From a virus (lineage: Duplodnaviria; Heunggongvirae; Uroviricota; Caudoviricetes): a stretch of DNA of 5,101 bases. The position numbers were made by a program, and so were the translations under genes. Where the stretch lies: IMG/VR virus record IMGVR_UViG_2534681604_000007; one strand, 5' to 3'. The stretch's first letter is position 1. The number at the start of each line of letters is the position of its first letter. Below the pieces are notes generated by a model. The model saw only the letters and a list, made by a program, of their open reading frames with translations. It had not been told where the DNA came from and made no database searches. This document shows, one piece after another, positions 1 through 5,101 of the stretch.

Positions 1-1074
1 TCATTTGTCGATTTCAATTTTGTCCCATTCCCGTCCACGGCTGTCCCTATACCGCGCCGCCATTGAATCTGATTTATGCCCGAGAAGACGTTGAGCAAAC
101 TTATCGCCAATCTGGTTCCGGTATAGCCTCGCCGACAGGCTACGCAGTTCATGGAATGTTGGCGGGTCTCCATCAAATGAGAGTCCAGATGCATTTCTCG
201 CCTTTGTAAAATACTTCGATACTGTTTTCGGGGAAAGTGGTTCGTGATGCGTTGATGCAATTATTGTTTCACTGCCGCTGGCCTTCCTGCATTTCTGTAG
301 TGTATCAGCCAATGAGATATTGAGCGCGTCAATCCTTAGCGTCAGCGGAATGGCGAGCTTAGCCCCTGTTTTACCCTGTTCAATGTGAAGATGGTTGTCG
401 TTTATGTCTGACCATTTCATTCTGCACAAATCGCCGACTCTCTGCCCTGTAACGACAGCCAAATCCATCGCCAGTCTTAGCCAGATTGGGAGAGGTTCGG
501 CTGCATGGTAAATCTCGACATACTCATTAGCTGTCAGCCTTGAGCGCCTTACTTCTGACTTTGCTGTGCGGGTTGCTGTTACCGGATTCGTTGCTACATG
601 CCCCTCGGCTATTGCCTCACGAAAAACGTCAACAAGGGTTGACCTGATTAATTTTGCGGAAGCCGCTTTACCTTCTGCTACGTAGGTGTTTAGCATTGCT
701 GCCACCTCTTTCGTTGATATGTCAGCGAGCGGTTTGTCCGGCAATTTTCTTCGGATTGCCCTGATTTTGCTGGCGTAGTCGAGTAGAGTTTTCGGCCTGA
801 TACCCCTCTCGCTGAGGATTGTTTCATATCGGTCAAGCCACGCATGAAGAGTGATTACGTCAGCGCCTTTAATTCTGTCTATCAGTGACTCACGCCTGTT
901 CTCGGATAGTAACTCAATATTGGCCTGAATAGCCTCTGAAACTGCTATCCTTCTGTCTCTGCCTAATCCGAACTCTTTACCCGTCCTTGGGTCTCTGTAG
1001 CAGTAATATCCATTGTTTCTTATATAAAGGTTAGGGGGTAAATCCCGGCGCTCATGACTTCGCCTTCTTCCCAT
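1..1074 (-). CDS. int: Lambda-family tyrosine site-specific integrase (356 aa)
   Basis: Translation starts MGRRRSHERRDLPPNLYIRNNGYYCYRDPRTGKEFGLGRDRR, as I recall for the lambda Int arm-binding N-terminus. Catalytic residues are present in the expected contexts: R in GQRVGDL, K in EQGKTG, H..R in FHELRSLSARLY, H in LLGHKSD, Tyr in AARYRD. ATG at 1074..1072 lies inside xis, as in lambda; TGA at 3..1. Confidence 0.96.
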   Translation of the reverse strand: MGRRRSHERRDLPPNLYIRNNGYYCYRDPRTGKEFGLGRDRRIAVSEAIQANIELLSENRRESLIDRIKGADVITLHAWLDRYETILSERGIRPKTLLDYASKIRAIRRKLPDKPLADISTKEVAAMLNTYVAEGKAASAKLIRSTLVDVFREAIAEGHVATNPVTATRTAKSEVRRSRLTANEYVEIYHAAEPLPIWLRLAMDLAVVTGQRVGDLCRMKWSDINDNHLHIEQGKTGAKLAIPLTLRIDALNISLADTLQKCRKASGSETIIASTHHEPLSPKTVSKYFTKARNASGLSFDGDPPTFHELRSLSARLYRNQIGDKFAQRLLGHKSDSMAARYRDSRGREWDKIEIDK

Positions 1075-1270
1075 TTCTGATCCTCTTCAAAAGACTACCT
1101 GTTACTGGTCGATTTAAGTCAACCTTTACCGCTGATTCGTGGAACAGATACTCTCTTCCATCCTTAACCGGAGGAGGGAATATCCTGCATTCGCGCACCC
1201 ATCGACGAACTGTTTCAAGGCTTCTTGGGCGTCGCTGGCGTGCGTTCCACTCCTGAAGTGTCAAGTACAT
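1052..1270 (-). CDS. xis: Excisionase Xis (72 aa)
   Basis: Translation MYLTLQEWNARQRRPRSLETVRRWVRECRIFPPPVKDGREYLFHESAVKVDLNRPVTG..KRIRNGKKAKS matches lambda Xis as I recall it. Its 3' end overlaps the int start by 23 nt. GGAG lies about 9 nt upstream of the ATG at 1270..1268. Confidence 0.95.
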   Translation of the reverse strand: MYLTLQEWNARQRRPRSLETVRRWVRECRIFPPPVKDGREYLFHESAVKVDLNRPVTGSLLKRIRNGKKAKS

Positions 1271-1360: not shown

Positions 1361-1672
1361 TTATTCGATGCGCACTCCTGGTATTTCGCCTTTTGATATT
1401 GCTAAGTCATAAATTTGTGCAGCACTATACCCATCTCGCATCCATGAATCTAAGGCGCGAACAGCCTCGCTACGTTTTTTATTCTCCCTCTCATTTTTGA
1501 TATCAACGAGGACATCAACGCAATTAAGGCAAATGTGGATTTTGTCCTTACATTCGATCATGGCGGCTTTACCATGATTTCCACCACACAGTGAGCATAA
1601 ATCTTCAGGGTCTAGCTGGTATTTCTGTAACGTTAGAGGGTTGAATGTTGAACAGACCATAATCATCTCCAT
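1361..1672 (-). CDS. Hypothetical C4 zinc-ribbon protein (103 aa); sits where lambda carries ea8.5, but homology was not verified
   Basis: Intact 103-codon ORF in operon orientation, TAA at 1363..1361. Cys pairs CSLC ... CLNC plus an extra Cys in IECK suggest a zinc ribbon. Three in-frame ATGs at codons 1, 3 and 5 (MEMIMV) leave the true start ambiguous. Confidence 0.65.
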   Translation of the reverse strand: MEMIMVCSTFNPLTLQKYQLDPEDLCSLCGGNHGKAAMIECKDKIHICLNCVDVLVDIKNERENKKRSEAVRALDSWMRDGYSAAQIYDLAISKGEIPGVRIE

Positions 1673-1731: not shown

Positions 1732-2016
1732 TTATTCATTGCTGATATTCACCTTTATCGCGAACACCTTTACCGGTTTATCGCCAAAGTGCGGATGTGT
1801 GATTGTCTTCACTTCATATCCGTCATACGGAACATCAATTCTGCGACTGGAATCGTCGCGCTTCGGATATCCCTTTGTGATAATCAGGCGGTTATACTTA
1901 CGGTTAACGAGGCGCTTTTTCCAGTAGTCATTACACAGGCGATACTCTTCCGTTTTCTCTCCGCGAATCATGGCATCGAAGTATTCACTTTTCACAGCAA
2001 GTTGCAGGTTAGCCAT
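1732..2016 (-). CDS. ASCH-like (PUA-fold) domain protein, 94 aa from the ATG
   Basis: ORF MANLQLAVKSEYFDAMIRGEKTEEYRLCNDYWKKRL...; the RGEKTEEYR segment fits the ASCH GxKxxExR signature. GGGGGA lies 7 nt upstream of the ATG at 2016..2014; an in-frame GTG at 2019..2017 is a less likely start. The ATG shares one nucleotide with the TGA of the upstream TraR-like gene (TGATG). Confidence 0.7.
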   Translation of the reverse strand: MANLQLAVKSEYFDAMIRGEKTEEYRLCNDYWKKRLVNRKYNRLIITKGYPKRDDSSRRIDVPYDGYEVKTITHPHFGDKPVKVFAIKVNISNE

Positions 2017-2237
2017 CACTTAATCCCCCTTTGTTTGCGGATAAGCTCCAGATCTTGCTGGCAACTTGCACAAGTCCGACAACCCTGAATGGCCAGTCGT
2101 CTTCGTTCATCTATCGAATCGCCACACTCACAACAATGAGTGGCAGATACAGCCTGGTGGTTCAGGCGGCGCATTTTTATTGCTGTGTTGCGTTGTAATT
2201 CTTCTATTTCTGATGCTGAATCAATGATGTCTGCCAT
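2016..2237 (-). CDS. TraR/DksA-family C4 zinc-finger protein (73 aa), likely an RNA polymerase secondary-channel binder; same size as lambda Orf73
   Basis: Translation MADIIDSASEIEELQRNTAIKMRRLNHQAVSATHCCECGDSIDERRRLAIQGCRTCASCQQDLELIRKQRGIK has an N-terminal acidic helix and CxxC...CxxC spacing typical of TraR (F plasmid) and lambda Orf73. ATG at 2237..2235, TGA at 2018..2016. Confidence 0.85.
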   Translation of the reverse strand: MADIIDSASEIEELQRNTAIKMRRLNHQAVSATHCCECGDSIDERRRLAIQGCRTCASCQQDLELIRKQRGIK

Positions 2238-2290
2238 CTTCCATTAATCCCTGAATTGTTGGTTAATACGCTTGAGGGTGAATGCGAACA

Positions 2291-2313
2291 ATAAAAAAGG
2301 AGCCTGTAGCTCC
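2291..2313 (-). terminator. Candidate intrinsic terminator between the 71-aa ORF and the TraR-like gene
   Basis: Minus strand: GGAGC-TACAG-GCTCC followed by TTTTTTATT. Short 5-bp stem but a strong U-tract. Confidence 0.4.
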
Positions 2314-2551: not shown

Positions 2552-2631
2552 TGAACAAGCCCCATGTCGGCAAGCATAAGCACGCAGAATATGAAGCCCG
2601 CTGCCAGAAAAATGCATTCCGTGGTTGTCAT
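2548..2631 (-). CDS. Unlisted 27-codon small ORF encoding a hydrophobic, probably single-pass membrane peptide (MTTTECIFLAAGFIFCVLMLADMGLVQ)
   Basis: Hand translation of the minus strand: GGAGG-CTGC-ATG at 2631..2629, followed by 26 sense codons and TGA at 2550..2548. The ATG overlaps the methyltransferase TGA (ATGA) and its TGA overlaps the ATG of the 71-aa ORF (ATGA). Codons are common E. coli ones (CTG, GCG, GGC, TTC, GCC, GAC). Below the ORF-track length cutoff. Confidence 0.45.
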   Translation of the reverse strand: MTTTECIFLAAGFIFCVLMLADMGLVQ

Positions 2632-3185
2632 GCAGCCTCCCGACGGGCAAGAATCCTTGAGCCGAACGCCATCAACTCGCCACGATCAACGGTCGTAAAG
2701 TGGCAGTGTGTACGGGGGTATGGGTGCCAGATAATGAGCATCGAGCCTTTATTATTTCCACTGACGGGTTTCCCGGTGAGTGGGTTAATAAATGCCAGTC
2801 GTCCTGCCGTGATGAATCTGACCTCACTGGCGGTTTGTATCGCTTCATGAAACCATCCGACAGATGTGTCAGCAGGCAATAACATTACACATCCCACACT
2901 ACTGAATTTGTTTTCAGTGGCTGCCTTTTTCACAAAAGGGGAAATATTGCTGTATGGTGGATTCAACCAGACATAACCAGAGGCATATCCCATTGCTTCA
3001 GGCCATGAAGTGGTTAATGTGTTCTGCTCCTGTGAGATAAAAAGCCGACATAGTCGGTTTTTTTCGTTGGCTGCAGCATCAAGTTGAAAATCGAACTCTG
3101 CATTCAGCGCAGCAAAAATCTCTGGTGGTGTGCGCCAGCTGTCGCGATGTTCGGCAGGAGTATTGCTTCCGGTGAAATCAGTCAT
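2628..3185 (-). CDS. Phage Dam-family (T1-type) DNA N6-adenine methyltransferase, 185 aa
   Basis: Translation contains the catalytic NPPY tetrapeptide (VWLNPPYSN) and the N-terminal WRTPPEIFAALNAEFDFQLDAAAN segment characteristic of the small phage Dam family. GGGGGG lies 4 nt upstream of the ATG at 3185..3183; TGA at 2630..2628. Confidence 0.88.
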   Translation of the reverse strand: MTDFTGSNTPAEHRDSWRTPPEIFAALNAEFDFQLDAAANEKNRLCRLFISQEQNTLTTSWPEAMGYASGYVWLNPPYSNISPFVKKAATENKFSSVGCVMLLPADTSVGWFHEAIQTASEVRFITAGRLAFINPLTGKPVSGNNKGSMLIIWHPYPRTHCHFTTVDRGELMAFGSRILARREAA

Positions 3186-3336
3186 ACAGCCCCCCGTTTA
3201 TTATTTATCTCCTCAGCCAGCCGCTGTGCTTTCAGTGGATTTCTGATAACAGAAAGGCCGGGAAATACCCAGCCTCGCTTTGTAACGGAGTAGACGAAAG
3301 TGATTGCGCCTACCCGGATATTATCGTGAGGATGCG

Positions 3337-4017
3337 TCATCGCCATTGCTCCCCAAATACAAAACCAATTTCAGCCAGTGCCTCGTCCATTTTTTCGATG
3401 AACTCCGGCACCATCTCGTCAAAACTCGCCATGTACTTTTCATTCCGCTCAATCACGACATAATGCAGGCCTTCACGCTTCATGCGCGGGTCATAGTTGG
3501 CAAAGTACCAGGCATCTTTTCGCGTCACCCACATGCTGTACTGCACCTGGGCCATGTAAGCCGACTTTATGGCCTCGAAACCACCGAGCCGGAACTTCAT
3601 GAAATCCCGGGAGGTAAACGGGCATTTCAGTTCAAGGCCGTTGCCGTCACTGCATAAACCATCGGGAGAGCAGGCGGTGCGCATACTTTCGTCGCGATAG
3701 ATGATCGGGGATTCAGTAACATTCACGCCGGAAGTGAACTCAAAGAGGGCTCTGGCGTCGTTCTCGTACTGTTTTCCCCAGGCCAGCGCCTTAGCGTTAA
3801 CTTCCGGAGCCACACCGGTGCAAACCTCGGCAAGCAGGGTGTGGAAGTAGGACATTTTCATGTCAGGCCATTTCTTTCCGGAGCGGGGTTTTGCTATCAC
3901 ATTGTGAACCTCTGAAGCGGTGATGACGCCGAGCCGTAATTTGTGCCACGCATCATCCCCCTGTTCGACAGCTCTCACGTCGATCCCGGTACGCTGCAGG
4001 ATAATGTCCGGTGTCAT
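3337..4017 (-). CDS. exo: Lambda exonuclease (Red-alpha), 226 aa
   Basis: Translation [65 protein letters not shown]...GEQWR matches lambda Exo as I recall it. ATG overlaps the bet stop (ATGA at 4017..4014). Confidence 0.97.
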
Positions 4018-4799
4018 GCTGCCACCTTCTGCTCAGTGGCTTTCTGTTTCAGGAATCCAAGAGCTTTCACTGCTTCGGCCTGTGTCAGTTCTGACGATGC
4101 TCGAATGTCGCGGCGAAATATCTGGGAACAGAGCGGCAATAAGTCGTCATCCCATGTTTTATCCAGGGCAATCAGCAGAGTGTTAATCTCCTGCATGGTT
4201 TCATCGTTAACCGGAGTGATGTCGCGTTCCGGCTGACGTTCTGCAGTGTATGCGGTATTTTCGACAATGCGCTCGGCTTCATCCTTGTCATAGATACCAG
4301 CAAATCCGAAGGCGAGACGGGCACACTGAATCATGGCTTTATGCCGTAACATCCGTTTGGGATGCGACTGCCACGGCCCCGTGATTTCTCTGCCTTCGCG
4401 GGTTTTGAATGGTTCGCGGCGGCATTCATCCATCCACTCGGTAACGCAGATCGGATGATTGCGGTCCTTGCGGTAAATCCGGCATGTGCAGGATTCATTG
4501 TCCTGCTCAAAGTCCATGCCATCAAACTGCTGGTTTTCATTGATGATACGGGACCAGCCATCAACGCCCACCACCGGAACGATGCCGTTCTGCTTGTCAG
4601 GGAAGGCGTAAATTTCTTTCGTCCACGGATTAAGGCCGTACTGGTTGGCGACGATCAGCAATGCGATGAACTGCGCATCGCTGGCATCACCTTTAAATGC
4701 CGTCTGGCGAAGAGTGGTGATCAGTTCCTGTGGGTCGACAGAATCCATGCCGACGCGTTCAGCCAGCTTCCCAGCCAGCGTTGCGAGTGCTGTACTCAT
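4014..4799 (-). CDS. bet: Single-strand annealing protein Bet (Red-beta), 261 aa
   Basis: Translation [85 protein letters not shown]... matches lambda Bet as I recall it. ATG at 4799..4797 follows the gam TAA (4807..4805) by 5 nt. Confidence 0.97.
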
Positions 4800-4804
4800 C
4801 CGTT

Positions 4805-5101
4805 TTATACCTCTGAATCAATATCAACCTGGTGGTGAGCAATGGTTTCAACCATGTACCGGATGTGTTCTGCCATGCGCTCCTGAAACTCAACATCGTC
4901 ATCAAACGCACGGGTAATGGCTTTTTTGCTGGCCCCGTGGCGTTGTAAATGATCGATGCAGAGTGATTCAAACAGGTGCTGGGGCAGACCTTTTTCCATG
5001 TCGTCTGCCAGTTCTGCCTCTTTCTCTTCACGGGCGATCTGCTGGTAGTGACGCGTCCAGCTCTGAGCCTCAAGACGATCCTGAATGTAATAAGCGTTCA
5101 T
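4805..5101 (-). CDS. gam: Gam, RecBCD inhibitor; 5' end truncated by the window edge (visible part is the 98-aa GamS-equivalent portion)
   Basis: Translation [95 protein letters not shown] matches the C-terminal 98 residues of lambda Gam as I recall it. The reading frame stays open to the last base of the window. Confidence 0.92.

Follow-up and report, generated by a model that had tools for sequence, protein, structure and literature searches.

A prophage orf73 gene encoding a TraR/DksA-family C4 zinc-finger protein predicted to inhibit host RNA polymerase

The Orf73 protein of phage lambda, characterised in 2022, binds RNA polymerase in competition with DksA and is, without ppGpp, as potent an inhibitor of rrnB P1 as TraR, with an IC50 of ~50 nM (PMC9239242). 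The rpsT P2 promoter is also inhibited without ppGpp, whereas the D3N and D6N variants of Orf73 inhibit poorly (PMC9239242). Expression of lambda Orf73 from pL reduces pre-rRNA to 29% and rpsT mRNA to 45%, slows growth and lowers the plating efficiency ~10^4-fold, and lambda lysogens without orf73 or with the D3A/D6A mutations yield 3-4 fold fewer phage (PMC9239242). The mode of binding is known from cryo-EM of TraR, in which the tip of the N-terminal helix reaches the region of the active site, the globule rests on the rim helices and on β' Si3, and the C-terminal helix touches β Si1 (PMC6970531). At the level of residues, R48 of TraR contacts the rim helices and R49 contacts β' Si3 (PMC9239242), and E46, R49 and K50 have roles at the Si3 interface (PMC6970531). 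Lambda Orf73 carries the ExxRL form of this motif (PMC8614690), and a conserved acidic residue in the C-terminal helix is a hallmark of the family (PMC8614690, PMC9239242). DksA, which occupies the same site on RNA polymerase, is a larger protein of ~151 aa with two aspartates on its coiled-coil tip, and it needs ppGpp for full activity.

The gene described here lies in a window of 5101 bp, by which we mean the whole stretch of DNA that was analysed. In the list of open reading frames of this window, it runs on the minus strand, which the original prediction had left unstated, from an ATG at 2237-2235 to a TGA at 2018-2016 and comprises 73 codons. The encoded protein is MADIIDSASEIEELQRNTAIKMRRLNHQAVSATHCCECGDSIDERRRLAIQGCRTCASCQQDLELIRKQRGIK. 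The features of the gene and of its borders are as follows.

2016-2237, minus strand: orf73-type coding sequence, 73 aa, TraR/DksA-family C4 zinc-finger protein (ORF list, Pfam, phrog_54, identity to lambda)
2214-2231, minus strand: DxxDxA motif, codons 3-8 (D3 I I D6 S A8), read from the sequence
2061-2135, minus strand: CxxC-17-CxxC zinc finger, codons 35-59 (C35, C38, C56, C59), with the extra C36 and C53 (Pfam match, alignment)
2094-2108, minus strand: E-R-R-R-L, codons 44-48, equivalent to E46, R48, R49 and K50 of TraR (alignment to TraR)
2031-2069, minus strand: C-terminal helix, codons 57-69, with E64, equivalent to E66 of TraR (model, alignment)
2248-2252, minus strand: putative Shine-Dalgarno-like AGGGA, 10 nt 5' of the ATG (from the upstream sequence)
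2014-2018, minus strand: TGATG overlap between the orf73 stop and the ATG of the downstream 94-aa gene (1732-2016), junction AAGTGATGGCT

Similarity to lambda Orf73, F TraR and DksA

The window protein and lambda Orf73 have the same length and can be aligned without gaps over 73 aa, of which 66 are identical (90%). Both contain the DxxDxA motif, six cysteines (C35, C36, C38, C53, C56 and C59) and ExxRL. The seven differences are, with the residue of the window protein given first, V30I, S41P, A49V, I50V, Q61E, R67S and I72S, and all seven positions (30, 41, 49, 50, 61, 67 and 72) are outside the residues with a defined function. The lambda gene is unannotated in RefSeq NC_001416, where it corresponds to an ORF in the gap between ea22 and orf61 (2784-3005 of the lambda locus L001, minus strand). 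The original prediction of a TraR/DksA-like secondary-channel regulator homologous to lambda Orf73, and of the same size, is thus borne out by the identity of 66/73 residues over equal lengths, by a Pfam match above threshold and by a fold match to TraR.

At the family level, residues 34-64 match Pfam PF01258 (zf-dskA_traR) with 33.4 bits against a gathering threshold of 24.9, and the full length matches phrog_54 ('DksA-like zinc-finger protein') at 9e-25. The top sequence matches in the PDB are YbiI (2KGO, 7.5e-5) and the TraR-RNA polymerase complexes of the F plasmid (5W1S, 4.1e-4; 6N57, 7.4e-4). The NCBIfam model TIGR02419 (C4_traR_proteo) is covered over its full length with 53.5 bits, which narrowly misses the cut-off of 59.7, and the equivalog model for F-plasmid TraR (NF010268) gives 22.4 bits against a cut-off of 108. 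As these curated models are not reached, we place the protein in the TraR/DksA family, as the orthologue of lambda Orf73, and do not regard it as an equivalog of F TraR. DksA proper can also be rejected, as the protein has 73 aa instead of ~150, a single N-terminal helix and no coiled coil. What it has in common with DksA (5VSW, 7KHI) and YbiI is the C4 zinc-finger module of PF01258. In contrast to DksA, the window protein would be ppGpp-independent by homology.

The AlphaFold model of the 73-aa protein, built on 47 sequences, has a mean pLDDT of 81. It comprises a helix at 8-23, a well-defined globular zinc-finger region and a helix at 57-69; the blocks 51-60 and 61-70 reach a mean pLDDT of 92, and residues 1-10, which include the N-terminal tip, have a low value of 59. 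In a Foldseek search of the PDB, TraR on RNA polymerase (6n57_M) is ranked first (probability 1.00, TMq 0.58, rmsd 5.1), followed by YbiI, by TraR 5w1s_M in third place and, below these, by DksA chains. The moderate TM value of 0.58 is expected for a free protein that is extended and made of three elements (PMC8614690). The modelled fold therefore appears to resemble that of TraR as bound to RNA polymerase.

F TraR (5W1S, 6N57/6N58, 6PSQ-6PSV) is similar in size and ~30% identical to the window protein, which retains the equivalents of its R48/R49 and E66. Both proteins are built of three parts, namely an N-terminal helix with a DxxDxA tip, a C4 zinc-finger globule and a C-terminal helix. Further traits of the TraR subfamily are present in the window protein: DxxDxA on a single N-terminal helix, no coiled coil, a length of ~73 aa and a C-terminal helix (57-69) with the conserved acidic E64, in the region that in TraR contacts β Si1. 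The acidic N-terminal helix and the C4 zinc finger on which the prediction had been founded are found as described, with five acidic and no basic residues among residues 1-15, the modelled helix at 8-23 and the CxxC-17-CxxC arrangement. The differences from F TraR concern the operon, which is the phage pL operon for the window protein and the conjugative tra operon for TraR, as well as the two extra cysteines and a leucine in place of K50. The Si3-interface triad ExxRK is consequently incomplete (E44-x-x-R47-L48), in the same way as in lambda Orf73.

The conservation of these residues was examined in an alignment of 100 sequences, in which the window protein, lambda Orf73 and F TraR were joined by 97 full-length homologues with 60-93% identity. 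The acidic tip, the lack of which would have spoken against the prediction, is present in the window protein and highly conserved, with D3 in 95, D6 in 96 and A8 in 98 of the 100 sequences. The same applies to the zinc-ligand cysteines (C35 99/100, C38 98/100, C56 95/100, C59 94/100), to R46 (98/100) and R47 (99/100), the counterparts of R48 and R49 of TraR, and to E64, which is near-invariant here (97/100) and does not vary in a further alignment (A1). Position 41 is variable, with a proline in 47 and an aspartate in 39 of the 100 sequences; the serine of the window protein corresponds to P41 in lambda and P43 in TraR. At position 48, no lysine is found among the four commonest residues of the 100 aligned sequences. 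Judged by the alignment, the window protein has all the residues to which a function has been assigned in TraR/Orf73, and these are near-invariant in its homologues.

Predicted action on RNA polymerase

The gene is an allele of the characterised lambda orf73, whose family, structure class, mechanism and effect on phage yield are already published. Since the seven substitutions fall outside the defined residues, a mechanism of the lambda type is the best supported. We estimate at about 0.9 the probability that the gene is an orf73 orthologue in a lambdoid prophage and that its product would bind RNA polymerase, inhibit rRNA and ribosomal-protein promoters and benefit the phage. The last three properties are transferred from the orthologue because of the 90% identity and the conservation of every tested functional residue. 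Transcription of rrnB P1 and growth upon overexpression, by which the prediction could be checked, have already been assayed for this 90%-identical lambda protein (PMC9239242).

By analogy with lambda, early leftward transcription from pL after induction or infection would cover the gene along with gam, bet, exo and the remaining exo-xis genes. The 73-aa protein would sit in the secondary channel of RNA polymerase and make no contact with DNA. Its N-terminal helix would point the DxxDxA tip at the active site, the globule with the zinc finger would rest on the β' rim helices and the C-terminal helix would contact Si1 of the β lobe. Promoters with short-lived open complexes, such as those of rRNA and ribosomal-protein genes, would then be inhibited without ppGpp, which would slow host growth, divert resources to the phage and increase the burst size. 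For annotation, the value of this reading is that the prophage would be recognised as carrying an intact gene for the take-over of host transcription.

The original prediction went further, as it also expected activation of amino-acid promoters without ppGpp. Such activation has been demonstrated for F TraR and four further homologues, but thrABC, argI and rpoH P3 are activated little or not at all by purified lambda Orf73, which strongly inhibits rrnB P1 and rpsT P2 (PMC9239242). As the window protein is 90% identical to lambda Orf73 and keeps its extra C36 and C53 and its leucine at the K50 position, it is unlikely to be a full dual regulator of the TraR type, which would inhibit rRNA promoters and robustly activate amino-acid promoters without ppGpp. 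Activation of thrABC and argI, by 2-4 fold, is indeed seen with F TraR and with four out of five tested phage homologues, induced lambda Orf73 complements a dksA-null strain on minimal medium, and the promoters tested are, according to the authors, too few to exclude activation (PMC9239242). E44 and R47, the equivalents of E46 and R49 of TraR, are also present in the window protein and favour a dual action. On the other side, the K50A variant of TraR shows normal inhibition and at least 2-fold less activation (PMC6970531), and the two extra cysteines may, as its authors suggest, explain why lambda Orf73 does not activate (PMC9239242). Taken together, the extra C36 and C53 and the leucine at the position of K50 predict an inhibitor-dominant regulator, and the window protein is probably, like lambda Orf73, a weak activator of amino-acid biosynthesis promoters or none.

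A second alternative, which we consider equally improbable, places the main role in phage development, as a pro-lysogenic function or as a block of host replication initiation ('bin'), exerted through another or an additional target. The role of orf73 in lambda is indeed disputed: one group, as far as its work is cited in the later literature, describes it as pro-lysogenic and as reducing the lytic yield, and the other group reports a raised yield (PMC8614690, PMC9239242). According to the citation of Zdrojewska 2019 in PMC8614690, deletion of orf73 in lambda and phi24B lowers host survival and lysogenisation, and a segment of lambda comprising orf73, ea22, ea8.5 and orf55 blocks host replication initiation, as cited in PMC9239242. 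High amounts of Orf73 also inhibit dnaA P2 and P1 in vitro, with an IC50 of 0.4-1.7 µM (PMC9239242). Nevertheless, the effect on dnaA mRNA in vivo is weak or absent, and the D3A/D6A point mutations, which are presumably non-polar, lower the lytic yield (PMC9239242). In the window, unrelated genes stand in for ea22 and ea8.5, the remaining 'bin' genes, whereas orf73 is kept. Moreover, the developmental roles may be downstream of the same action on RNA polymerase, in which case they would not be a true alternative to it.

The cysteines allow a more speculative proposal, to which we give little credence, namely that the Orf73 clade is an inhibitor-only, redox-sensitive variant of TraR with a thiol switch based on Cys53. 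C53 adjoins the zinc site in the sequence and is kept in 90 of the 100 aligned sequences, although it is absent from F TraR; the other extra cysteine, C36, is found in 35 of the 100. The lysine linked to activation in TraR (K50) is lost across the Orf73 clade. The zinc-finger cysteines of DksA are reported to sense oxidative stress. In the Stx phage phi24B, orf73 and ea22 are the most strongly expressed exo-xis genes after induction with H2O2 (PMC4195576). Both the cysteine sensing by DksA and the expression in phi24B fit the idea of a redox switch. Should it hold, the thiol switch would couple oxidative stress to the shut-down of host ribosome synthesis in prophage induction.

Genome context, distribution and expression of the gene

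The window is the left arm of a lambdoid prophage, and all its real genes are on the minus strand. The gene order is gam-bet-exo-orf60a-dam-orf61-orf73-...-xis-int, which places orf73 in a slot of the lambda exo-xis type. Besides orf73, the following features were assigned.

1-1074, minus strand: int (Phage_integrase and lambda arm-binding domain)
1052-1270, minus strand: xis (Pfam Exc)
1361-1672, minus strand: 103-aa ORF (phrog_3680, 3e-67)
1732-2016, minus strand: 94-aa ORF of ASCH type (phrog_625; ASCH domain protein in phage ev207 and in E. coli annotations)
2290-2313, minus strand: hairpin GGAGCT-ACA-GGCTCC with a T-run behind it, in the spacer that separates the orf61-like gene from orf73 (terminator scan)
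2336-2617/2650, minus strand: long orf61-type gene (phrog_303)
2628-3185, minus strand: phage N6-adenine methyltransferase (Pfam Dam, 8.8e-57; TIGR01712 above cut-off)
3182-3346, minus strand: orf60a (DUF1317)
3337-4017, minus strand: exo (Pfam YqaJ)
4014-4799, minus strand: bet (Pfam RecT)
4805-5101, minus strand: start of gam

In lambda, orf73 has the same place in the pL operon, with orf61 on one side and the genes that precede xis on the other, and a t2-like hairpin lies upstream in both cases. The two differ downstream, where lambda has ea22 and the window has the 94-aa ASCH-type gene. The overlap of the orf73 stop with the ATG of this gene (TGATG) suggests translational coupling, and the same orf73-ASCH junction is found in phage ev207 and in many E. 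coli prophages. A blastn comparison of the window with lambda yields four blocks, at 1-1361 (int and xis, 76.6%), at 1662-1735 (a 74-bp intergenic piece, 97%), at 2026-2631 (the region of orf73 and orf61, 95%) and at 3183-5101 (orf60a, exo, bet and gam, 97.6%). The homology to lambda thus breaks within the last ~10 bp of orf73, at ~2026. The view that orf73 alone among the cassette genes is common to the window and lambda had to be abandoned, as orf61 and orf60a lie in the blocks 2026-2631 and 3183-5101 and are shared too. The genes that differ from lambda are the ASCH-type gene and the 103-aa ORF, in place of ea22/ea8.5, and Dam, in place of orf63. The genes flanking the orf61-orf73 block have thus been swapped while orf73 was kept, and its retention between swapped flanks fits selection for function in lambdoid and Stx phages.

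The 73-codon ORF is a real, conserved gene under purifying selection, with a dN/dS of 0.26 against lambda and of 0.28 against phage ev207. It is not a chance ORF in view of the Pfam and phrog_54 matches, of these dN/dS values, of the exact 73-aa protein recurring, in an identical gene order, on at least 24 public contigs, and of the gene being present in 3298 of 5426 complete E. coli genomes (~61%), with up to 6 copies per genome. A chance ORF or a decaying remnant without function, which the many ORFs of similar length on both strands of the window might suggest, can be dismissed given the dN/dS, the family-model matches, the retention of all functional residues, the position conserved across genera, the exact copies and the translation of lambda orf73 seen by ribosome profiling, as cited in PMC9239242. 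The ORFs overlapping on the plus strand (2031-2198, 2066-2227 and 1720-2088) are unsupported and were taken as chance ORFs. A scan of the whole window against Rfam at gathering thresholds found no RNA family, and hence gives no sign of an RNA element at the orf73 locus.

The whole 5101-bp window matches a chromosomal prophage in GCA_000190495.1 with 100% identity, and four other genomes are 98.6-99.7% identical to it, with an equal gene order. For the gene itself, the best DNA match in complete E. coli genomes is 97.3%, and the best full-length phage match is 96.4% among the matches listed. In the band of at least 99% identity, the phage collection has one record, which is probably the 40-bp match at 100% in phage 21 (M61865), the only one of this band among the matches listed. 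RefSeq names the E. coli copies 'TraR/DksA family transcriptional regulator'. Relatives with 53-69% identity are found in other Enterobacteriaceae, namely in Enterobacter, Citrobacter, Pseudocitrobacter, Lelliottia, Siccibacter and Pseudescherichia, and share the slot downstream of exo/orf60a/dam/orf61-type genes and upstream of xis/int.

With regard to expression, the hairpin at 2290-2313 is nearly the same as the predicted terminator t2 of lambda and phi24B (PMC4195576, Table 4), and lambda transcripts past t2 are less abundant (PMC4195576). A scan for sigma-70 promoters found no promoter-like site on the minus strand upstream of orf73 in the window; the window has three sigma-70-like sites, against 5.5 expected, each of which lies on the plus strand. 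The -10 box of the BPROM-predicted p1 is TTTTATTAT in lambda (PMC4195576) and TTTTATTGT in the window. As no promoter-like site is present on the minus strand, a promoter belonging to orf73 itself is not supported in the window, and N-antiterminated transcription from pL is by default the probable route of expression. We infer that this transcription would read through the t2-like hairpin.

Several further observations concern the neighbouring genes. The Dam gene stands in the slot of lambda orf63 (DUF1382) and recurs beside the orf73 homologues of Enterobacter and Citrobacter prophages, with 71-75% identity. The 103-aa ORF at 1361-1672 stands in place of lambda ea8.5/orf55, and its residues 23-70 show a weak match to the ClpX N-terminal zinc finger (E ~2e-3), far below the cut-off. 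The orf61-type gene has a run of six A at ~2491, where lambda has seven (L001 3104-3416). With six A, the orf61 frame stays open and encodes a protein of ~93 aa (phrog_303, 8.8e-41). With the extra A of lambda, orf61 ends at 61 aa, and the C-terminal half becomes a separate 60-aa ORF in another frame. The lambda 'orf61' thus has the appearance of a longer, conserved protein that was shortened by a frameshift, or of a slippage site. In related genomes, the orf61-type gene is called as 93 aa or as 71 aa.

The copies of the prophage arm (98.6-100%; loci L003-L008, ~6237-6600) border on two different chromosomal regions: those in L003, L005 and L006 lie next to an RND efflux operon (genes of 415 aa and 1040 aa), and those in L004 and L008 next to a TorS-like sensor kinase. 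L007 lacks int, and its homology begins at position 1298 of the window. An orf73 identical to that of lambda, and hence 90% identical to that of the window, also occurs in assemblies of, among others, Shewanella, Bradyrhizobium, Streptomyces, Paenibacillus, Segatella and Nanosynbacter (L009-L043). These matches to unrelated taxa are on short or low-coverage contigs, several of ~48.4-48.5 kb, and contamination with lambda DNA is the most likely origin, so that a true distribution of orf73 in unrelated phyla was rejected. In the Stx2 phage 933W (AF125520.1 / NC_000924.1), two places match the orf73 query, which agrees with the mention of two paralogues of Orf73, orf73 and L0141, in the literature (PMC8614690).

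Terminator-like sites number 16 in the window, against 4.9 expected. One of them, a hairpin at 1301-1320 with a perfect 8-bp stem (AAACCGCC-ATCA-GGCGGTTT) and T-runs on both strands, lies between xis and the 103-aa ORF and resembles a bidirectional terminator.
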